NCBI GenBank assembly: GCA_002701295.1
Contig: NZUJ01000124.1
Location: 53,986-117,985 of the forward strand
Source of the DNA: Ponticaulis sp.
GTDB taxonomy: Bacteria; Pseudomonadota; Alphaproteobacteria; Caulobacterales; Hyphomonadaceae
Length of the DNA stretch: 64,000 bases
Direction: 5' to 3'
A program made the position numbers and the translations under genes. Shown piece after piece: positions 52,374 through 64,000 of this stretch (position 1 is the stretch's first letter; each line of letters starts with the position of its first letter). The notes beneath the pieces were generated by a model, which saw only the letters and a program-made list of their open reading frames with translations, was not told the origin of the DNA and did not search any database.

Positions 52374-54311
52374 TCAGGGCTGCAGCGCTTTATCCACGAA
52401 GCTGATGATTTCCTTCATCGCGTCTACCCGGGAATTTCTGGTCGACAGGCTATGATCCTGCCCACGCAGGATGATGAGATCCACAGACTTCCCGGCATCC
52501 TTCAGCGCATCTTCCATCCGCCGACTCTGGCGGGCGTCCACCACCTGATCCTGATCACCATGGATCAGTAGAACAGGCGCCTGAAAGGCCTCAGCCTTGT
52601 ACTTGGGTGACACCTCTTCCAACTGATCGCGCGCTTCACGCACATCTCCTATCGACTCTGTCCAATAGTCATAAACCCAGTGGTCTCGTCCAAAGGATTT
52701 GAGATCATCGATCAGCATCACTGGCAAATCACTGACGCCTGCAATCGACACGACACATTTGTAGAGATCGGGTGTATAAGCCCCCCCGGCCAGCGCCGCA
52801 TATCCGCCATAGCTCCAGCCGACAATGCAGATGCGCTCTTCATCCACCCAGCCAGAACGGACCAAACCACTGACGCCGTCAGAGATGTCGTCCTGCATGG
52901 CACGCCCCCACTCGCCCTTGCCCGCATCCTGAAAGGACCGACCAAAACCTGATGATCCGCGGAAATTCGGTTGAAAAACGACATAGCCCTGGCTCGCGAA
53001 ATACTGCGCCATCCAGTCAAAGCCCACCTGATCATATGACGCTGGTCCACCATGCGGCAGAACAACCATTGGCAGATCTTTCCGGTCGGCCGAAGACAAT
53101 CCGGGCGGCCAGGTCACAATAGCCGGAATATCAAGCCCATCGCGCGCTTTGTAGGAAATCACCGATGACTGAGCCACATCGGTGCCGCTGACATTGGGGC
53201 GCACATCCAGAAGGATGGAAACGCCACCTGATCCGCGGTCATAAAGAAGATACTGCCCCGAAAACTCGCCTGCCGAAACAAACAACAGAATGCGCGACCA
53301 GTCTTCGCTCCATGAGGCAATGCTTACGGAGGAGGGCTTCAACCCCTCTACGATATCTGCGAGATCGCTGTTCAGGTCCGGGTCAAGCATGGCGTATGAT
53401 GGGCTTGTTCCTGAATAGCGAACCCCATGGACGACGCGGTTTTCATCGATCAGAACCGAGTCAATTTCCTTGTCGACCTCATGAAGAAACGGTCCGGAAA
53501 CCTCACCATCTGACAGCCGCATCAGGAACAGGCCATTCATGTCTGACCCCTCTACACCGCTCAGGATCACAAGCTCGGAACGGTCGGGCGTCAGGCCAAC
53601 AGGAGCCAGCTCCGGTATGGCGACTTCCTGCTCGAATATGGTTGTGGCCGAACCGTCCGAATAGCTGTGGACCGAGTAGATATTGCTCTCATTGTCATAA
53701 TCAATACGGGCCAGCACATCCCCATCCGGCTCAACAAACCAGTCACGCGTGTAAGGCAACCCACGCACCAGAACCTTTCCGCGATCGCTGTCGACCTGAC
53801 CTTCAACAAGTGAATACCGTGCCGTGTCGGTGCGCCCGATATAAGCAGGCATGTAAACCTCTTCCCCGTCATCAGACATGGCAAGGATCCGTCCAAGCCC
53901 TTCCTGCGCCGGGTGAAGGTCTTCCGTGCGATTGATGAGCTGAGTAATTCGCTTCCGTCCCAGTTTCACGCTGAAGGCTGACGCATATTCAAAATCGCCA
54001 CGATAGCCGCGCCGGGACGTCATTTCGGACGCGACCAGAACGACATGCTCATCGCCAGCGAATATCAGATTGCGCGGCTTGAGGTCAGTGACTTCCAGAA
54101 CGCAGTCTGATTGCCCGGAATTCAGATCGTAAATACAGAGGACTTCCTTGTCTCCATCTGACGCTATGACGGCCAGTTGATCACCATCATCAGAAAGGAC
54201 TGCATTTCGATAGGCGGGCGGCGCGGCATAGTCTTCCAGTTTCGGCTGCGCGTTTGCAACAAAAGAGAAGCCACCACAGGCAAACACACAAGCGACCAGA
54301 AATTTACGCAT
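52374..54311 (-). CDS. Secreted S9 family (prolyl oligopeptidase-like) peptidase
   Basis: Signal peptide, LPHGGP, NFRGS, GWSYGG, HGDQD, DH. Confidence 0.9.
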   Translation of the reverse strand: MRKFLVACVFACGGFSFVANAQPKLEDYAAPPAYRNAVLSDDGDQLAVIASDGDKEVLCIYDLNSGQSDCVLEVTDLKPRNLIFAGDEHVVLVASEMTSRRGYRGDFEYASAFSVKLGRKRITQLINRTEDLHPAQEGLGRILAMSDDGEEVYMPAYIGRTDTARYSLVEGQVDSDRGKVLVRGLPYTRDWFVEPDGDVLARIDYDNESNIYSVHSYSDGSATTIFEQEVAIPELAPVGLTPDRSELVILSGVEGSDMNGLFLMRLSDGEVSGPFLHEVDKEIDSVLIDENRVVHGVRYSGTSPSYAMLDPDLNSDLADIVEGLKPSSVSIASWSEDWSRILLFVSAGEFSGQYLLYDRGSGGVSILLDVRPNVSGTDVAQSSVISYKARDGLDIPAIVTWPPGLSSADRKDLPMVVLPHGGPASYDQVGFDWMAQYFASQGYVVFQPNFRGSSGFGRSFQDAGKGEWGRAMQDDISDGVSGLVRSGWVDEERICIVGWSYGGYAALAGGAYTPDLYKCVVSIAGVSDLPVMLIDDLKSFGRDHWVYDYWTESIGDVREARDQLEEVSPKYKAEAFQAPVLLIHGDQDQVVDARQSRRMEDALKDAGKSVDLIILRGQDHSLSTRNSRVDAMKEIISFVDKALQP

Positions 54312-55243: not shown

Positions 55244-55654
55244 ATGGCCAACTACACATTCCAACAGGCAAACCGGCGATACAGGAGCGTTTTCTTCCCC
55301 CTTATCGCACTGTACGTTGTCGCCTGCATCGGCGGCGCGCTGCTCTTGAAAACGATGGAAGTTCCGCCGGTCTGGCTGAAGCCTGTCGTCGCCGTCTTCA
55401 CCGTCGCGCCAATCTTTGGCGTGTTCTGGCTGGTATGGCGCTACATTCAGGAAACTGACGAATACACACGGCTCCGCCAACTCGAAGCTCTTTCAATTGG
55501 TGGGATGACCTGCGCCAGCGCAACGGGCGTTGTGGGCTTCCTGGAGCTTTATGATGCCATTCCCGCAGATGCCGTACCGACCTTTCTGTTTCTCCCAGTC
55601 TTCTTTTTCAGCTGGGGCGTTACAAAGTGGCTTCGCGGCGCTGGAGGATGTTGA
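55244..55654 (+). CDS. Hypothetical membrane protein co-transcribed with an XRE regulator
   Basis: About 4 TM, DEYTR motif, AAGGAG RBS. Confidence 0.75.
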   Translation: MANYTFQQANRRYRSVFFPLIALYVVACIGGALLLKTMEVPPVWLKPVVAVFTVAPIFGVFWLVWRYIQETDEYTRLRQLEALSIGGMTCASATGVVGFLELYDAIPADAVPTFLFLPVFFFSWGVTKWLRGAGGC

Positions 55655-55656
55655 TC

Positions 55657-55875
55657 ATGGAAAACAAACTTCGCGTTCTCCGAGCCGAGCGCAAATGGAG
55701 CCAGGCTTTTCTGGCCGAACAACTCGGCGTATCGCGCCAGTCGGTCAATGCGATCGAGACAGGAAAATATGACCCATCTCTTCCACTGGCCTTCGCCATC
55801 TCACGATTATTCAGCCAGCCTATCGAGCAAATTTTTCAGGATGATGCGGCCAACCTGACCGAAGCTGCAGAATAA
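55657..55875 (+). CDS. XRE-family HTH regulator
   Basis: MENKLRVLRAERKWSQAFLAEQLGVSRQSVNAIETGKYDPSLPLAF. Confidence 0.9.
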   Translation: MENKLRVLRAERKWSQAFLAEQLGVSRQSVNAIETGKYDPSLPLAFAISRLFSQPIEQIFQDDAANLTEAAE

Positions 55876-56456: not shown

Positions 56457-58421
56457 TCAATTCACATTCGCGTTTTCATCTATCGGCAGATATTTGTCCA
56501 AAAACGCCCCCATCGCCGCAAGAGCTTCAATCCGGGTTTCGCGCCTCGACAGCCAGTGATCTTCGTCTTTTAGCCTGACGAATTCAACGGTCTTACTCTC
56601 TCGTTTCAAGGCGTTTTCCATGATTTCACTTTGCTCAATCTGAACAACTGTGTCGTCGTCTCCATGGATCAGAAGGACCGGCGCTGAAAATTGTTCAGCA
56701 TACTTGACCGGCGAAACCACCTCCATTTTAGCTTGTCCGCCGTCCGGCCCGGCCATGACTTCTTTCCAATAATCCAGAGCGGTACTCCACTGTCCGTTTC
56801 TGTCGTATGCCGCTTTCACCATCCGCGGGAGGCTGGAAATACCACCGCCAGAAATGACACATTTGAAGCGACCGGCTTCGAAGGCTCCAGCGGCAAGCGC
56901 GGCATATCCGCCATAGCTCCAACCAGCGATGCAAACCTTTTCCTTGTCGACCCAGCCACGTTCGGCCATCGCATCGATCCCGTCGATCAAGTCGGTCTGC
57001 ATCTTATTGCCCCACTCACCCTTCCCAGCTTGGTAAAAGTCCGACCCGTATCCCGTGGATCCGCGAAAATTGGGCTGAAGAACGACATAACCCTTACTCG
57101 CGAAGTACTGCGCCATATAGTCAAATGACACCGTATCGTGAGATGCCGGGCCACCATGTGGCAAAACCACCATGGAAAGCCCGCTCTTCTCGTCGGGTCG
57201 GATTTCAGGTGGCCAGGTCACGATCGCTTCGATCGGTATTCCATCGCGGGCGGCATACTCGATCGTATGGACGTCGCCGACACTTTCTTGTGGAATATCC
57301 GGGTACCGGGATCCGAGTTTCTGGATGCCTCCACTGTCACGGTCGATCAGAAAAAAGGTACCGGTCCCGCCAAGCCCTGTGTAGACAGTGAAAAGCAGCT
57401 TCGATTTATCGTCGGACCATGAAGACAGGTAGACCGATGCGCCGGGAATTTGACGAGCAAACTCGTTGTAGATCTGGTCAAGTCCATCGTCAAAAAAGTC
57501 ATATGACGGGCGCGCTCCACCAAATCGGAAACCATCAATTATTCCGTTTGTGGACAAGGTCGAACTCACATCCTTGCCTCTGCTTTCGGACAGATATGGC
57601 TTGAGGGTGGGGTTATCCGGCGACAGCAGGTAAAACCCGTCGCCCTGTTCAGATTCATAGGTCGCCGCGATAAGGAAAGTTTTCTGATCCGGCATAACGC
57701 CAATCAGGCTGTAACGTGGACGCCTGAACTTGTCTCGAAAGATGGTCGTCCATCCGTCCACTCCACCCGGAACCTCGAGGATGTATTCGTCAGATTTAGC
57801 ACCGTATCGTTCTCGAGCCAGAAGCGTTCCGTCAGTTCCGACCGCGTAATCCAGCGTCGTGAAGTCCCCGATGCTATGGATAACGCCTTTGCCATGACTG
57901 AGGCTTACCTTGAACAGATTGTACTCCCAACGTCCGAAAGTCCGCTGCGGCGCCCCCATGTAGACATAGTCTCCACTTTCATCGACCGCTGCGATCCATC
58001 CGACAGACTGTCTGTCACTGATGCCTTTCGTTCCGACGAGTAATTGCTTCGCTGACTGACGCTTGAGATCAATCGCATAGACCTCGGAGTACTCATATTT
58101 TCCGCGAAGACTGCCGTAATAGCCTGAAGTGTCGGTGCCACGTACGATCAGTTTGTCTTCATTGACCCAGATTGTTCCACGAACTTTCAACCCCGAAACG
58201 GGAACCTTTACTCGAGGCGTCATCGTCGCAAGATCAATGACCAGTACTTCAGTTCCCGTTTCCGTATTTTCAGTCACGGCTACTTGTTTACCAGACGGGG
58301 ACAGTTTCATGTCTTCGAATCTGGGAAGCGCGCCAAATTGTTCAGCCAGATCTTGTGCCGACACAGATTGGTCTGACCAACAGACTATTGTAAGTATGAA
58401 ACACGCAAAAAAACCGCGCAT
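56457..58421 (-). CDS. Secreted S9 family peptidase (second paralog)
   Basis: LPHGGP, NFRGS, GWSYGG, HGDDD, DH. Confidence 0.9.
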   Translation of the reverse strand: MRGFFACFILTIVCWSDQSVSAQDLAEQFGALPRFEDMKLSPSGKQVAVTENTETGTEVLVIDLATMTPRVKVPVSGLKVRGTIWVNEDKLIVRGTDTSGYYGSLRGKYEYSEVYAIDLKRQSAKQLLVGTKGISDRQSVGWIAAVDESGDYVYMGAPQRTFGRWEYNLFKVSLSHGKGVIHSIGDFTTLDYAVGTDGTLLARERYGAKSDEYILEVPGGVDGWTTIFRDKFRRPRYSLIGVMPDQKTFLIAATYESEQGDGFYLLSPDNPTLKPYLSESRGKDVSSTLSTNGIIDGFRFGGARPSYDFFDDGLDQIYNEFARQIPGASVYLSSWSDDKSKLLFTVYTGLGGTGTFFLIDRDSGGIQKLGSRYPDIPQESVGDVHTIEYAARDGIPIEAIVTWPPEIRPDEKSGLSMVVLPHGGPASHDTVSFDYMAQYFASKGYVVLQPNFRGSTGYGSDFYQAGKGEWGNKMQTDLIDGIDAMAERGWVDKEKVCIAGWSYGGYAALAAGAFEAGRFKCVISGGGISSLPRMVKAAYDRNGQWSTALDYWKEVMAGPDGGQAKMEVVSPVKYAEQFSAPVLLIHGDDDTVVQIEQSEIMENALKRESKTVEFVRLKDEDHWLSRRETRIEALAAMGAFLDKYLPIDENANVN

Positions 58422-58491
58422 GACGCTTTCTCCCAAACGCTCCGTCTGGTTGTGGCATGTCAGTTTTTCAAGAGGAGATCAACTCAATCTA

Positions 58492-58902
58492 TCAGGCCGC
58501 TTCGCCACCATCGCCGGAGCCGAGGCGGGCGCGTTTATGCTTGGCAATGGTGAACGCGATGGTTTCGAACAGACCCCGCACTTCGACTGGCTTGATAAGA
58601 AACTCGTCTGCGCCCTGTTCGAGACACTGCCCGCGAAGGTTCAGAGCCGTATCAGCCGTAACCACGATGATGGGTATTTCGGACTTTTCGTCCTCGCGTG
58701 CTCGGATCCGGCGAATGGCCTCCATGCCATCCATACCTGGCATGCGAAGATCCATGAGAATGAGGTCGTAATTTTCTTCGTCGATCTTGCGAAGCCCGGT
58801 CAATGCGTCCTCGGCTTCATGCAATTCAATCTTGGCGGCGGTGAGCATCTCCTTCACCACGCGTCGATTCATTGGATCGTCTTCTACGAACAAAATTCTC
58901 AT
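58492..58902 (-). CDS. Single-domain response regulator
   Basis: VEDD, DLILMD, TA, IKP all intact. Confidence 0.92.
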   Translation of the reverse strand: MRILFVEDDPMNRRVVKEMLTAAKIELHEAEDALTGLRKIDEENYDLILMDLRMPGMDGMEAIRRIRAREDEKSEIPIIVVTADTALNLRGQCLEQGADEFLIKPVEVRGLFETIAFTIAKHKRARLGSGDGGEAA

Positions 58903-58977
58903 CAATTTCGTCAGACTTCACTCCAGTAGGCCAAATATTAGCCTACCATATTCCTAAGTTATGTTTAAGCGTTAGCT

Positions 58978-61491
58978 TCAATTGGCATCCGCTATAACGT
59001 TTTGTTGTGTACTTCTAATCCCCGTTTCATCCCTGTCTGCCGCCAATAATTGTCTGATCGCAGACCAGATATGCTCCGGTTCATACTCGGGCACGACCAC
59101 GCAGGAAACTCCCGAGTGTACTTCTGGTTCCGAAGTTCCAAGCACAGCCAGTTTCGTCGACAATTCTGACAAGTCTGTGCCGGAAGCTTCAAAGTCTGCC
59201 CACATCTGTTCCGGAAATATTGCCAGATGAAACTGACAACTTGTCAATTTTTCCGTAAAATCTTCAATCGAATCTGAAACATGAAGCCGGGCAACATCGT
59301 CGCGAATAAAGGCTTCCAGAACCATCTTCTGCATGAAGTCATCCTGGAAGATCAGAATGCTGGCATCTTTCGGTCCGGCGATCGGGCTGTTTCCATCAAG
59401 AGCCAGCTCGCCTGTTTCTGTCACGCCTTTTTCGATAATCGTCAGAGGAAGCCGCACGGTAAATGCAGACCCCTCGCCTGCCTGGCTTTCGACATCGATT
59501 GTTCCATTCATTGCCTGACAGAAGTTTCGACAGATCGACAAACCAAGCCCTGTGCCGGCATATTTCCGCGTCATCGCACCGTCCACCTGGTGGAATGGCT
59601 TGAAGATGTTCTCGAACTCATCTTCAGGAATACCAACACCTGTATCTTCGATGCGAACGGAGAGGACGCCCGGGTCGGCAGCATCATCATAGCCTGCAAC
59701 CACACGGATCTGCCCGGCTTCTGTGAACTTGATCGCGTTTGAAAGCAGATTGAAGAAGATCTGCCGCAAACGTTGTTCATCAGCCTCGACAAACTGAGGG
59801 CAGTTCCCCAGATCGACCTCGAAACCAAGGCCCTTATTGCTGGCATTGTCGCGCCAGAGCAGACAAGCCTCGTCGATCAGCTCACGAAGCTGGACCTCAC
59901 CAATATTCAGCGTGACTTTGCCGGTTTCGATCTTGGCAACATCCAGCAGGTCATCAACAATGGCCTTCATCGACTTGCCGGCGGTTTCAACAACGCTCAG
60001 TCGTTCCCGAATTTCAGGTGAAAGCGACTTATCCTGCAAAATCACCTGAGACATGCCAAGAATGCCGTTTAGCGGCGTTCGGATCTCGTGACTGGTGGTC
60101 GCCAGGAATTCGGTTTTGGCATTGTTTGCCTTTTCAAGCATGCGGTTTGAATCGTTCAGACGGTCATTCACGCGTCCGATCGCGTCACGGCTGCGGCGCA
60201 TAGAGATATAACCGGCAAGCAGGAAGCCGAGGATCAGAATTGCGCCAATACCAACGCCAGCAAAAATCAAAGTGCGCTGACGTGTACGCGCCTGTGCAAT
60301 CTCAACATCCTGCTCGAGGCGCTGAAGTCTGAGCTGTTCGATACGCAGTTCCTGGTTCGTAAAATCAAACTGCGCGGACATCAGTGCAGAATTGGTTGAT
60401 GCAGCGAGGCTCATCGCCTCGTCTTCCAAGCGCTTGAACGCCTCCAGATGCACCAGAGATCGGTCATACATATCGAGCGTCTGATAAATCTGATAGGCGT
60501 GCTCGTGCATTTCCTTGTAGAGCAACGTTGTCTGGCGGGGATCGACACCCGAAAACGTCCGCTCGATAAATCGTCTCGCCGCCTGAGCATCTCCGCGCTC
60601 ATAGGCAACCTCGGCCTTAACGCCCCAGAGAAACGGCTCCCAACCCGACAATTCCCCTTCAGGCATCCGGTCCAGACCCTGATCCGCAGTTTCCTCGGCA
60701 AGATCATATTCGCCGTTCAGCGCATAGGTGTGCGCAAGGTTGGTGAGAATGCGTGCGACGATAAAATCCGGAGCGCCCTGCGTGTTCGCAAATTCAAGAG
60801 CCTGTTGATAGAGCTCACCCGCTTCTTCATAGCGTTCCAGGCCACGTAAGGCGTTCGCCTTATTGTTCAGGTTGAAGAAGACAAATTGCGGGTCGTCATC
60901 ATACACTTCCATAGACTGATCGTAATACGCGATGGCCTGCTCAAAATCGCCAGCGTCCACATGAATGTCGGCAAGCTTTTGAAGTGCGCTACTCTGACTA
61001 CGGAAGTCGCCCTCAGCACGCAAAATATCCAGCGCGAGCATCAGGCTTTCGAGAGCCTTCTGAATTTTACCGATACGCTGAGCGATCCGTCCGCGCGTTA
61101 GCAGAATATTGCCGCGCAGATCATTGGCTTCGATATCGTCGCCCAGAACTTCGAGTGCCCGGTCGACCATGGGCTCCGCCTCTAGTGGCGCATTCGTTCG
61201 GTTGAGCGCTTCGGCTTGCAGCCAGTAAGACGTCGCCAGTCTGCGGGCACGTTCTTCTTCGGTTGCACGCGCTGGCACAAATTGTTCAGCTGTCCGCGCT
61301 CGCTGAAGCGCAATCGCAGGTGCTTCGACCATATTGCTGCGCGCCTCGGCAATGGCGGTGTCAAAATCTGTCCAATCGACGTCGGACATGATTTCAGAAG
61401 TCGGATCAGCGGGATCAACGGCATGGGAGACCCCCGAGAGAGCTCCTAACGCACAGAGTGCGATCAACATATGCCCGCGCCGAGACACCAT
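58978..61491 (-). CDS. Periplasmic-TPR sensor histidine kinase with degenerate C-terminal receiver
   Basis: Signal peptide, TPR helices, one TM, SHEIRTPLNG, NLLSNAIKFT, DTGVGI, GTGLGL. Confidence 0.88.
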   Translation of the reverse strand: MVSRRGHMLIALCALGALSGVSHAVDPADPTSEIMSDVDWTDFDTAIAEARSNMVEAPAIALQRARTAEQFVPARATEEERARRLATSYWLQAEALNRTNAPLEAEPMVDRALEVLGDDIEANDLRGNILLTRGRIAQRIGKIQKALESLMLALDILRAEGDFRSQSSALQKLADIHVDAGDFEQAIAYYDQSMEVYDDDPQFVFFNLNNKANALRGLERYEEAGELYQQALEFANTQGAPDFIVARILTNLAHTYALNGEYDLAEETADQGLDRMPEGELSGWEPFLWGVKAEVAYERGDAQAARRFIERTFSGVDPRQTTLLYKEMHEHAYQIYQTLDMYDRSLVHLEAFKRLEDEAMSLAASTNSALMSAQFDFTNQELRIEQLRLQRLEQDVEIAQARTRQRTLIFAGVGIGAILILGFLLAGYISMRRSRDAIGRVNDRLNDSNRMLEKANNAKTEFLATTSHEIRTPLNGILGMSQVILQDKSLSPEIRERLSVVETAGKSMKAIVDDLLDVAKIETGKVTLNIGEVQLRELIDEACLLWRDNASNKGLGFEVDLGNCPQFVEADEQRLRQIFFNLLSNAIKFTEAGQIRVVAGYDDAADPGVLSVRIEDTGVGIPEDEFENIFKPFHQVDGAMTRKYAGTGLGLSICRNFCQAMNGTIDVESQAGEGSAFTVRLPLTIIEKGVTETGELALDGNSPIAGPKDASILIFQDDFMQKMVLEAFIRDDVARLHVSDSIEDFTEKLTSCQFHLAIFPEQMWADFEASGTDLSELSTKLAVLGTSEPEVHSGVSCVVVPEYEPEHIWSAIRQLLAADRDETGIRSTQQNVIADAN

Positions 61492-61674
61492 TCTGCGTCC
61501 TTCAGAAAAACTGACGGAAAGACTCACACAACTTTCTGAATTTTCCGTTCATTTCTGTTAACCTCGATCAAGTTCAACAGATTGGCGGACGCGGTCAAGA
61601 GGCATGATGACGCCTGCGTCATCATGCAGATTGCAGACGACTCAGGCTTCAACCTTAGCTTTCAGATAGTTGGA

Positions 61675-64000
61675 TCAGAACTTTATGGAGAAGCGGGCAC
61701 CGGTCGCAAATTCCGGATTAAGCGCGTCGGCAGACCCGTTTCCAGCAGTCACATCAGAACGCGTGAAGGCCGAAACTTCGCCCATGCCATCAAACACAGG
61801 AACACCATAACTGAGTTCCAGATTCAGCGTGCGCTGCGCATCTGAAATACCCCAGGTCTGGCTGACCACGCCGAGCTCTCCGGTTTCGCGATCAACAACC
61901 TCTACACCGCTATACAGGAAAGCGCCGTTTTCTACTCTCAACGGCTGAGACAATGTCAGACGCGCCCGGTCCTCATCAGAGAACAAGCCATCCTTACGAA
62001 GACCAATCGCGAAGGCAGACGATGTCAGACCGCCGTCAGCCAATGAGAGCAAGCCGCTATTGAACTGCTCTGCTTCGGTCTGACCGGAAGTTGCCGATAC
62101 GCCAAGCGTCAGGCTGTAAGGCAGCTGGACATCAGCACCGAACGTCATTGCGGTGGTTGTTGCGCCGCCATCCAGCGAGAAGATACCCGTGCCCTGATCG
62201 CCCAGAACGCTGTTCTTTTCACGCAATTGCGTGTAGCCGAGCGACAGCTTGACCGCATCCGTTGCCTGATATGACATCGAGATATTGGCCGCCTGAGCCG
62301 CATAGTCGGACAGACCGTCACCATTGTAGAGACGCACTTCGGTCAGCGGATCAATGTATGAGTGGTCGTCGCTTGTCTCGGTCACACTGGCCGCGAGGGA
62401 TAGTTTCTCGTTAAGCGGCAGAACACTGGAGAGATAGGCACCACCGGATGCCAGACCCAGGAACGGATTCACACCGCCAGTATCGACATCGAAGTCAGAA
62501 TAGAAGCCAAAGACAGCGCTGGAATTCAGACGCGCCGCCGCATCGCCCTGACCGAAACGGAACTCGGTGCCGGTTGTCGTTTGGCGAACCACAAGGTCTG
62601 TCTGGAATGGCAAAGCATTTTCGCGAATGTCTGTGCCAGGAGCATATGATGCCGCGCGCATGGCAACAGCCCATTCGCCGTTCAGACCAAGATTGGCCTC
62701 ATGGCTTTCAACGTCGCCAAAGGCAGATCCACCAGATGCCCAGTCAACAAACCGCTGATAGAGATGGCGCTGGAATTTCCGGTCCTGATCAATTTGATCC
62801 AGTACGGAATCCTGCCCGAAGAGCTGGCTAGACAGTGGAATCCGGAAATCACGGAAGGTATCGCCAACTTCCTCGATGGCGACGACATAAGCGCCATTTT
62901 CCTCAAGGCGGACACGATCCGCGCGGAGGAAGGCATTCTGGATCCAGTCTGCCGATTTACCGCGGCGCAAACGTCCGTCTTCAGATCGGGAGTAATAGTA
63001 AGTGAGGTTTTCCCAGCTGAGCGGAGACAATGCCGCTTCAACGTCGAGCATCCCCCAGCCATAAACGCCATCGACCCCTTCTTCGCCAAGGTCCTGAGCA
63101 GATTGCAGAATAACATCAACGGTTTCTTCGCCGTGCGACTTCCACCACGGCCATGCGCCATGAACCAGCGCTGCAGTACCGGACACCAGAGGCGCCGCGA
63201 AAGACGTACCAACCTGACGCGTCACGCCGCCCTGCCCATCTGAAACCAGAATGAACTCACCTGGCGCAACAAGGAAGTTGTATTTCAGCTTGTTGGATTC
63301 TGCGCAGACACCATCAAACACAGCGCAGGCTTCACCCGGCGTGTTCGACCAGCTGGCGATCTCGCCATCAATGCCAGTTGCTCCGACAATGATCAGTCGA
63401 TCAAGCGCCGCCTGACTTGACCATGCCACGTCACCCGGCTGTACAGCACCTTCATTACCAGCCGCTTTAACGAAGATCGTGCCTTCGCTCGACGGGTCAG
63501 AAACAACACCGCCCAGAATCGACGACCACTCTTCAGACAGCACACTGCCCGGAACACCGAGCGACATGTTAATCACACGCGCATCATTATCCACGAGCGC
63601 ATTGATGCCGAGCTCGACATCATTCCAGCCAGCCGTGTTGGTCTCGTCAAACGGGTTGTAGGTCGCAACGCTGGCATTTGGCGCAATGCCCATAATACCC
63701 CAGGTATCATGTGGCGCGATCATCAGGCTGATGACTGCAGATCCGTGCGTATCTTCGCTATCAGTTGCATACCCGCCGGAATAGATCACATCATGCGACA
63801 GCAAGGTCTCGTCCGTGATGCCAAAGTCCAGAAGACCGATCACCGATTTTGTCTGGTAATCATGATCCTGAGTCAGCGCTGGCGACCAGTTAACCTGACC
63901 CATCCAGTTATCCACGCGGTCCATCCCGGTGAACAGCATCAGCGTATCATACCACTCCACAAAGAACTTCGCGCGATCAGTCGCCGTCATACCTGACAGG
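61675..64000 (-). CDS. S8 subtilisin-like peptidase with beta-rich, barrel-like C-terminus; probably 5'-truncated by the window edge
   Basis: Triad motifs LLDFG, HGSAV, GTSFAAP; AAGN; frame open to 64000; terminal F. Confidence 0.85.
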   Translation of the reverse strand, partial: LSGMTATDRAKFFVEWYDTLMLFTGMDRVDNWMGQVNWSPALTQDHDYQTKSVIGLLDFGITDETLLSHDVIYSGGYATDSEDTHGSAVISLMIAPHDTWGIMGIAPNASVATYNPFDETNTAGWNDVELGINALVDNDARVINMSLGVPGSVLSEEWSSILGGVVSDPSSEGTIFVKAAGNEGAVQPGDVAWSSQAALDRLIIVGATGIDGEIASWSNTPGEACAVFDGVCAESNKLKYNFLVAPGEFILVSDGQGGVTRQVGTSFAAPLVSGTAALVHGAWPWWKSHGEETVDVILQSAQDLGEEGVDGVYGWGMLDVEAALSPLSWENLTYYYSRSEDGRLRRGKSADWIQNAFLRADRVRLEENGAYVVAIEEVGDTFRDFRIPLSSQLFGQDSVLDQIDQDRKFQRHLYQRFVDWASGGSAFGDVESHEANLGLNGEWAVAMRAASYAPGTDIRENALPFQTDLVVRQTTTGTEFRFGQGDAAARLNSSAVFGFYSDFDVDTGGVNPFLGLASGGAYLSSVLPLNEKLSLAASVTETSDDHSYIDPLTEVRLYNGDGLSDYAAQAANISMSYQATDAVKLSLGYTQLREKNSVLGDQGTGIFSLDGGATTTAMTFGADVQLPYSLTLGVSATSGQTEAEQFNSGLLSLADGGLTSSAFAIGLRKDGLFSDEDRARLTLSQPLRVENGAFLYSGVEVVDRETGELGVVSQTWGISDAQRTLNLELSYGVPVFDGMGEVSAFTRSDVTAGNGSADALNPEFATGARFSIKF

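Follow-up and report, generated by a model that had tools for sequence, protein, structure and literature searches.

A subtilase with an N-terminal heptapeptide array and an adjacent periplasmic TPR sensor kinase in Ponticaulis sp.: a candidate extracytoplasmic signalling module

Gene content and domain structure of the locus

The stretch of DNA analysed here (the window, 64,000 nucleotides, C6:53986-117985) was taken from the 133-contig genome of Ponticaulis sp., a marine stalked alphaproteobacterium, and this report concerns three consecutive minus-strand genes at its high-numbered end, encoding an S8 subtilase, a sensor histidine kinase with tetratricopeptide repeats (TPR) and a receiver-only response regulator. 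A preliminary description of the window, made from its letters, had placed three same-strand genes of these kinds there, and all three were recovered in those places, on the minus strand, by open reading frame (ORF) listing and Pfam and NCBIfam scans. The subtilase (1116 aa) is encoded at 61675..64000 and on past the window end to 65025 (L002:3661-7011), the kinase (837 aa from an ATG start, with an alternative GTG start possible at 61527) at 58978..61491, and the regulator (137 aa) at 58492..58905. The intergenic gaps measure 183, 72 and 55 nt. No terminator-like site was found in the intergenic gaps of the module by a terminator scan, and a promoter scan gave four matches, all on the opposite (+) strand and no more than in shuffled sequences.

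The subtilase gene starts approximately 1 kb beyond the window, which leaves the N-terminal 342 aa of the protein outside it. In the proposed circuit of the preliminary description, the protease makes or destroys a peptide, or its own propeptide, that the kinase reads; recovery of the N-terminus by reading the contig beyond the window exposed a multi-copy heptapeptide array, which fits the propeptide variant of that proposal. The array (aa 54-283, minus strand, at what would be 64177-64866, L002:6163-6852) follows a Sec signal peptide and contains 24 heptads, 21 of which are exactly WGSLDTF, arranged in runs of 2-4 with spacers of 5-14 aa between the runs. The 21 identical copies are encoded by 21 different DNA sequences (mean pairwise nucleotide identity 0.80), with the Ser coded by both AGY and TCN codons. 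AlphaFold2, run on the subtilase with an alignment of 60 sequences, gave the array a predicted local distance difference test score (pLDDT) below 35 and no secondary structure, and it is probably unstructured on the basis of this model. A regular beta-solenoid with a 21-residue period was considered and ruled out by run lengths of 1 to 7 units and by the lack of any AlphaFold2 structure.

The array is followed by a helical domain (aa 253-390, its C-terminal part in the window at 63856..64000, minus strand), with helices predicted at 253-388 (pLDDT 82-93) and residues F354, D360, G367, D372, W374, M375, W380 and P382 invariant in 60 relatives. The catalytic domain (aa 395-670; 63016..63843, minus strand) was delimited by PF00082 (E 1.8e-30; 105.8 bits against a cut-off of 21.8), fold matches and AlphaFold2. 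D400, H427, the oxyanion Asn N524 and S608 are invariant in the same number of relatives, so that the Asp-His-Ser order of the triad is intact, as had been reported from the letters. The closest folds are classical subtilisins, with a template modelling score of about 0.8 normalised to the target; the best 50 Foldseek matches to the full model were all subtilisins, the catalytic domain dominating the search and the barrel described below being left unclassified by it. Alignment to subtilisin E showed that S125-L126-G127 and A152-G154-N155-E156 are kept, with Ser, Trp and Val at positions 166, 104 and 107, respectively, and this indicates hydrophobic, subtilisin-like S1 and S4 pockets. A middle alpha/beta domain (aa 675-830; 62536..63003, minus strand), predicted by AlphaFold2 and carrying a conserved FRDF.IPLS motif, separates the catalytic domain from the C-terminal part.

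The C-terminal domain (aa 863-1116 plus stop codon; 61675..62439, minus strand) is beta-rich and barrel-like in the AlphaFold2 model, in which 12-13 long beta strands are predicted over the last approximately 250 aa (863-1114, pLDDT 85-97). The last residue is Phe, as it is in outer-membrane barrels, and 46 of 60 relatives have F, Y or W there; both features agree with the barrel-like C-terminus noted in the preliminary description. Just short helices (842-845 and 854-858) and no long pore helix are predicted before the first barrel strand. The helical, middle and C-terminal domains have no Pfam family, S8 alone being matched in all 48 family members tested, and none of the 48 matched the Autotransporter model PF03797 or any outer-membrane-protein model at E <= 5. 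The C-terminal 283 aa found no PDB sequence match at E <= 10 (phmmer), and the match to the NCBIfam EprS model was confined to the catalytic domain and far below its cut-off. The protein is not filed here as an autotransporter because of this lack of a Pfam or PDB match for its barrel-like part, but it may work like one.

The kinase consists of a cleavable signal peptide, a TPR superhelix of approximately 300 aa (pLDDT 95-98), a long stalk helix, one transmembrane segment, HisKA, HATPase_c and a pseudo-receiver, as delimited by Pfam and AlphaFold2. Counted from the ATG at 61491, the superhelix occupies aa 41-338 (60478..61371, minus strand), and its N-terminal two thirds (TPR-N, aa 41-241; 60769-61371, minus strand) is the counterpart of a block that co-varies with the heptads in relatives. 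The transmembrane segment lies at about 60208-60276, the DHp and CA domains at 59437-60138 and the pseudo-receiver at 59011-59361, all on the minus strand. The TPR domain is predicted to be periplasmic because it lies between the signal peptide and the only transmembrane segment, in keeping with the exported TPR input described earlier. Matches to PF00512 (3.5e-19) and PF02518 (3.7e-31) place the protein among class I histidine kinases, and H468, N581/N585, D616/G618/G620 and G646/G648/G650 (the H, N, G1 and G2 boxes) are invariant in 65 sequences. Residues 711-827 are predicted to adopt a (beta-alpha)5 fold in which HLAIFPEQ and VVVPEY stand in place of the acceptor Asp and Lys expected of a hybrid kinase, and Pfam Response_reg gave no match to this C-terminus. 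Some relatives retain a true fused receiver, which has degenerated to a pseudo-receiver in the genus Ponticaulis. A fold search with the kinase model returned kinase cores alone and gave no comparison of the TPR with peptide-binding TPRs.

The response regulator (minus strand) is spanned at aa 4-116 by PF00072 (1.4e-29) and has no other domain, hence no DNA-binding domain, and its acidic pocket is intact (E8-D9-D10, D52 in LILMD, VVTAD and LIKP). It is thus a receiver-only protein, as first described.

Conserved pairing and co-variation of array and sensor

Orthologs of the subtilase and of a sensor covering the TPR domain were found in the same 15 of 41 related genomes, and neither was found in the other 26. 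When all ORFs within 7 kb of 47 subtilase ortholog loci were clustered, the TPR sensor was the only conserved neighbour, being present at 42 of the 47 loci, always on the same strand and at a median gap of 114 nt; linkage of the S8 gene with a TPR kinase or TPR-GGDEF/EAL gene had been set beforehand as a test of the circuit. Four genomes in which the pair is unlinked each have exactly one sensor ortholog elsewhere, and 45 loci of generic S8 proteases, used as a negative control, had no TPR-sensor neighbour. In 21 loci, those whose sensor is a non-hybrid kinase, the sensor is followed by the receiver-only regulator, with identities of 72-86% within the genus and 42-57% in other families. Beyond the genus, the 47 loci had no other conserved neighbour, and no transporter or importer gene is kept nearby. 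The cytoplasmic output of the sensor differs (kinase, hybrid kinase or GGDEF-EAL) and the TPR input is constant, which places the link to the protease on the periplasmic input side; this swapping of outputs, together with a regulator that has no DNA-binding domain, argues against plain co-regulation. One TPR-kinase ortholog (G006:C16:459879-462362) was reported to contain a single in-frame TAA, yet ORF listing gives an 835-aa frame, and the TAA is probably located just beyond the gene or within the extension of the alignment.

Maximum-likelihood trees of the subtilase core and of the TPR domain recovered the same clades. The Erythrobacteraceae contain two paralogous lineages of the module, each with the same six members in both trees (support 99-100). 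In the first, the repeats are 14-mers (xGRIRTF-EGDIDPx) and the sensor is a kinase with a separate receiver, and the second has YGNINPF-type repeats, its three members with a complete sensor having GGDEF-type (mostly GGDEF-EAL) output. Erythrobacter sp. YT30 and a related metagenome-assembled genome (L053 and L066, about 7.6-18.9 kb) carry two complete modules in tandem, 4 kb apart and with different repeat types.

At least 120 full-length relatives of the subtilase were found with E below 1e-173, in Ponticaulis, Euryhalocaulis, Maricaulis, Rhizomicrobium, Sphingomonas, Sphingosinicella and others, and 117 of the 120 listed have at least five heptad units. A logo anchored solely on two Phe residues seven positions apart, and built from the 115 proteins with at least three such units, reads [YW] (75%), G (94%), [DNS], [ILV] (94%), [ND], P (73%, else T, A or S) and F. 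Within Ponticaulis, the unit is near-uniform in each species (WGSLDTF, WGDLESF, WGNLDSF, WGNLDTF, YGDLDAF, WGDLDTF, YGNLETF and more), and the heptad codons are scrambled in every species. Three relatives (P0005, P0012 and P0031) have Trp in place of Phe at position 7 in nearly all units (WGTLDTW, YGNLDTW and YGDIGPW), so another aromatic residue is accepted at this position, but only when the units change in concert. Another three (P0017, P0020 and P0023) are different heptad-array subtilases of YGNLDTF type, 47-60% identical to the query and each from a 66,919-bp contig, which suggests one genome with three paralogous copies. No paper was found in the literature with any of six heptad strings or with any module of an S8 protease and a TPR sensor, and Pfam, NCBIfam, PDB sequences and the searchable literature yielded no description of the array, the helical domain, the barrel-like domain or the pairing.

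The array and the sensor vary together. Two genomes of differing heptad type, G001 (WGNLDTF, 29 copies) and G007 (WGNLDSF, 30 copies), share 93% identity in the non-repeat DNA of the subtilase gene, and their arrays are colinear, spacers included, but position 6 differs in every unit. Nonsynonymous (dN) and synonymous (dS) divergence between them is 0.096 and 2.5 in the array and 0.145 and 0.96 in the TPR domain, as against a dN of 0.027 or less and a dS mostly of 0.29-0.48 (0.13 in the pseudo-receiver tail) in all other segments. The divergent TPR block has sharp edges at about aa 41-241 of the kinase and 65-68% nucleotide identity. The saturated array dS and the TPR dS of about 1 indicate old alleles and no recent burst, and for the same reason the T-to-S switch was rejected as the product of 29 recent parallel point mutations.

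By their TPR-N sequences, the protein-database kinases of the Ponticaulis koreensis complex form two classes, which differ by 32%. The heptad, predicted beforehand from the TPR-N class, matched in all four complete contigs (L118, L121, L123 and L124) and all three partial ones (L119, L122 and L125). Across six genomes of the complex, the locus is about 93% identical except in the array and TPR-N, whose alleles are perfectly associated (WGNLDTF or WGNLDSF); identity within classes minus identity between them is +0.07 to +0.19 in the array, +0.20 to +0.26 in TPR-N and about zero elsewhere, including the 2.5 kb of subtilase core that separates the two islands, which is undifferentiated (-0.012 to +0.013). 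The pseudo-receiver tail has two classes of its own, which occur in all four combinations with the TPR-N classes, and this free assortment indicates that recombination is frequent in the locus. The pseudo-receiver alleles (L026, L028, L029, L118, L121 and L124) differ by approximately 34% in amino acids with a dS of about 1.3, and the regulator downstream is 97% conserved. Within the module, it is generally the TPR domain that evolves fastest. In partial Mantel tests of heptad difference across 13 Ponticaulis taxa, controlled for kinase-core and subtilase-core distance, TPR-N gave r 0.46 (p 0.0003), the C-terminal TPRs (TPR-C) r 0.23 (p 0.07) and the kinase core r -0.02 (p 0.54), where four of the pairings were inferred from contigs of equal length and such tests can be liberal.

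Upstream of the subtilase gene, past the window end (L002:7396-9501), lies a gene for a 701-aa exported protein with an AhpC/TSA-redoxin part, a CxxCH haem-binding motif and C-terminal EF-hands, closed by a strong intrinsic terminator (L002 7373-7348) just ahead of the promoter region of the subtilase. Two paralogous genes of exported S9 prolyl-oligopeptidase-family proteins lie downstream (56457-58436 and 52374-54311), one of which comes directly after the regulator in some Ponticaulis genomes; the S9 peptidases were ruled out as members of the module, their position next to the pair not being conserved outside the genus. At 55244-55875 on the plus strand, the 5' end of an 82-aa HTH_3 (Xre-type) gene is overlapped by a gene for a 136-aa membrane protein, and this pair is kept downstream of the module throughout the P. 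koreensis-complex contigs.

Candidate mechanism and alternative explanations

The conserved pairing and the co-variation of two separated islands suggest that the array and the N-terminal TPRs probably interact as ligand and receptor. The reading that we somewhat favour for the whole, with comparative sequence data as its basis, is that of a two- or three-gene extracytoplasmic signalling module in which the array is the cognate ligand, or a ligand precursor, for the N-terminal TPRs of the adjacent sensor. The subtilase would be exported by Sec and anchored by its C-terminal beta-barrel-like domain. Its own subtilisin-like domain would most likely cut after the invariant Phe, in a site of the form [IL]-x-[PT]-F with Ile or Leu at P4, Pro or Thr at P2 and Phe at P1, freeing many copies of one heptapeptide to bind in the TPR superhelix. 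Subtilisin is known to prefer suc-AAPF, its standard substrate, and the most conserved heptad residues, Ile/Leu at position 4, Pro at 6 and Phe at 7, together with the subtilisin-like S1 and S4 pockets, fit P4, P2 and P1 of this substrate. Judged from the invariant catalytic residues, the subtilisin folds and these pockets, release of the array by the protein's own protease comes close to an even chance. Binding would alter the activity of the kinase and phosphorylation of the receiver-only regulator, and in other lineages the output would be turnover of cyclic di-GMP (c-di-GMP) instead. The variable heptad positions 1, 3, 5 and 6 would carry receptor specificity, and strain-specific pairs of peptide and TPR alleles would form a pherotype-like self-recognition or quorum signal. 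The circuit of the preliminary description has thereby gained comparative support from linkage and co-variation, while cleavage of the array, reading of the peptide by the TPRs, cellular location and the direction of signal flow are points that we infer.

Several observations weigh against this reading. The co-variation comes from one species complex, in which one allele is represented by three lineages and the other by two or three, and a second clean two-island replicate was not found among pairs from other clades. The differences between TPR alleles are not enriched on the concave (A) helices and are spread over both TPR faces. Approximately 29% of array residues are aromatic, which is unusual for a disordered region, and AlphaFold2 may simply have failed there; in many lineages, the heptad units within one protein are heterogeneous. 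A simple model of cutting after every Phe leaves the spacers between the heptad runs unaccounted for, a peptide of approximately 824 Da, the calculated monoisotopic mass of WGSLDTF being 824.37 Da, would if freed outside the cell need to re-enter the periplasm, and the lack of any autotransporter match for the barrel makes surface exposure uncertain.

In an unlikely alternative, the array is never released and is periplasmic, during export or permanently, where the inner-membrane TPR would bind it through multivalent contacts. What the sensor monitors would in that case be the export or assembly of the subtilase, or else the condition or width of the envelope, with the protease acting on other substrates and the barrel serving merely as an outer-membrane anchor. 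Linkage and co-variation fit such a tethered ligand equally well, the spacers need no explanation, and no transporter or importer gene is conserved near the pair. Autotransporter passengers translocate C-to-N, and by an autotransporter-like route the N-terminal array would be the last part to leave the periplasm; the lack of an autotransporter family match and of a predicted long pore helix before the barrel points the same way. However, discrete old allele pairs in linkage disequilibrium are typical of cell-to-cell signals and less expected for an internal contact, and both the heptad consensus, which resembles a subtilisin site, and the invariant catalytic residues would have to be coincidences.

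The flow of information could also be the reverse, with the TPR docking the protease through the heptads and controlling or directing its activity, or the protease could cleave the sensor in regulated proteolysis. There are known cases of TPR proteins that activate a periplasmic protease by binding to it, such as NlpI-Prc and LbcA-CtpA, and both the linkage and the co-variation are compatible with a docking interface. We nonetheless hold this to be very unlikely: the TPR is always fused to a cytoplasmic signalling output that varies, which argues that it is an input, the known pairs use S41 proteases and free lipoproteins and not S8 proteases, and 20-30 identical docking motifs seem excessive. 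That the two proteins have no direct interaction at all is scarcely probable. The array would in that case be a surface adhesin or antigen under diversifying selection, for example by phage or grazers, the sensor would merely be a co-transcribed regulator, and the two islands would coincide by chance in a locus that is a mosaic anyway, its pseudo-receiver having two alleles of its own; repeats at the cell surface commonly evolve in concert, and the independent lineages are few. Such an account is at odds with a pair that is kept in several orders, swaps its outputs, is duplicated as a pair and gives mirrored trees, with the perfect association of two islands across freely recombining DNA and with a Mantel signal specific to TPR-N, and a regulator without a DNA-binding domain cannot simply be a local transcription factor.

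Linear-peptide quorum and kin signals are seen as a hallmark of Gram-positive bacteria, small molecules being the signals usually attributed to Gram-negative ones. If the favoured ligand-receptor reading is true, the module would be a genetically compact pair of peptide and receptor, with more than 100 protein clusters in the Caulobacterales, Sphingomonadales, Parvularculales and Micropepsales. Orphan periplasmic TPR sensors, as a whole class, would gain a candidate ligand, and the module would offer a natural case of codon-scrambled identical repeats and testable co-adapted alleles of signal and receptor that are kept together across recombining DNA. A more far-reaching version is tentatively put forward as possible, namely a widespread alphaproteobacterial peptide-pheromone system in which a heptapeptide is produced in 10-30 copies from an array joined to the subtilase that matures it and to an outer-membrane anchor, and is read by a periplasmic TPR kinase or c-di-GMP enzyme, with pherotypes for kin or strain discrimination; such a system would be what RRNPP and agr signalling are in other bacteria, but Gram-negative and extracytoplasmic. 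A tethered array would still constitute a new outer-to-inner-membrane sensing device.

Comparison with known systems

The subtilase resembles the subtilase autotransporters (type Va; NalP, SphB1, EprS and Ssp-type) in its Sec signal, intact S8 triad and beta-rich C-terminus with a terminal aromatic residue. Unlike them, its family has an N-terminal heptad array, helical and middle domains and an obligate TPR-sensor partner, and the models for autotransporter and outer-membrane barrels that define such proteins in Pfam are matched by none of its 48 members tested. Tandem identical core peptides and an S8-family enzyme, in Ponticaulis the presumed processing one, are shared with multi-copy precursors such as yeast alpha-factor processed by Kex2, fungal Kex2-processed repeats and the cyanobactin precursor PatE with PatA/PatG, in which the copies are identical within a species and different between species, as in the heptad array. 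PatA and PagA were among the fold matches of the subtilase model; no macrocyclase-type insertion was identified in the protein, and its PatA/PatG NCBIfam score was far below the cut-off. In contrast to the Kex2 and PatA/PatG systems, precursor, protease and anchor are one polypeptide, and the units abut without dibasic or recognition spacers.

In agrBDCA of staphylococci and comQXPA of Bacillus, hypervariable segments of signal and sensor domain co-vary as specificity alleles, and the kinase core and regulator are conserved, as in Ponticaulis. The variable region of agr and com is contiguous, whereas that of Ponticaulis forms two islands 2.5 kb apart, in a Gram-negative host and in unrelated proteins, so that the likeness is one of pattern and not of homology. 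The NlpI-Prc and LbcA-CtpA pairs combine a free TPR lipoprotein with an S41 protease, whereas the Ponticaulis module has an S8 protease and a TPR fused to a transmembrane signalling protein.

The RRNPP (Rap-Phr) systems of Firmicutes are alike in that a TPR superhelix would read a short linear peptide made by an S8 protease. RRNPP peptides bind in extended form in the concave TPR face (PMC3601957), and maturation of Phr has been ascribed to subtilisin, Epr and Vpr (Lanigan-Gerdes 2007, as cited in PMC3601957). Their receptors are cytoplasmic, the peptide is imported by Opp and the precursor is encoded by a separate small single-copy gene, whereas in the present module family the TPR is periplasmic and fused to kinases or c-di-GMP enzymes, and the precursor is multi-copy and fused to the presumed protease. 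The two are not homologous, and the likeness is in function only. FimS of Porphyromonas gingivalis, from a different phylum, is also a histidine kinase with a periplasmic TPR cluster, and is likened here by domain layout; its ligand is given as unknown, a polypeptide has been suggested (PMC11053733), and no partner protease or ligand gene is reported for it. The Ponticaulis module lacks defining features of each of these families, its architecture is new and its host group is an unexpected one.

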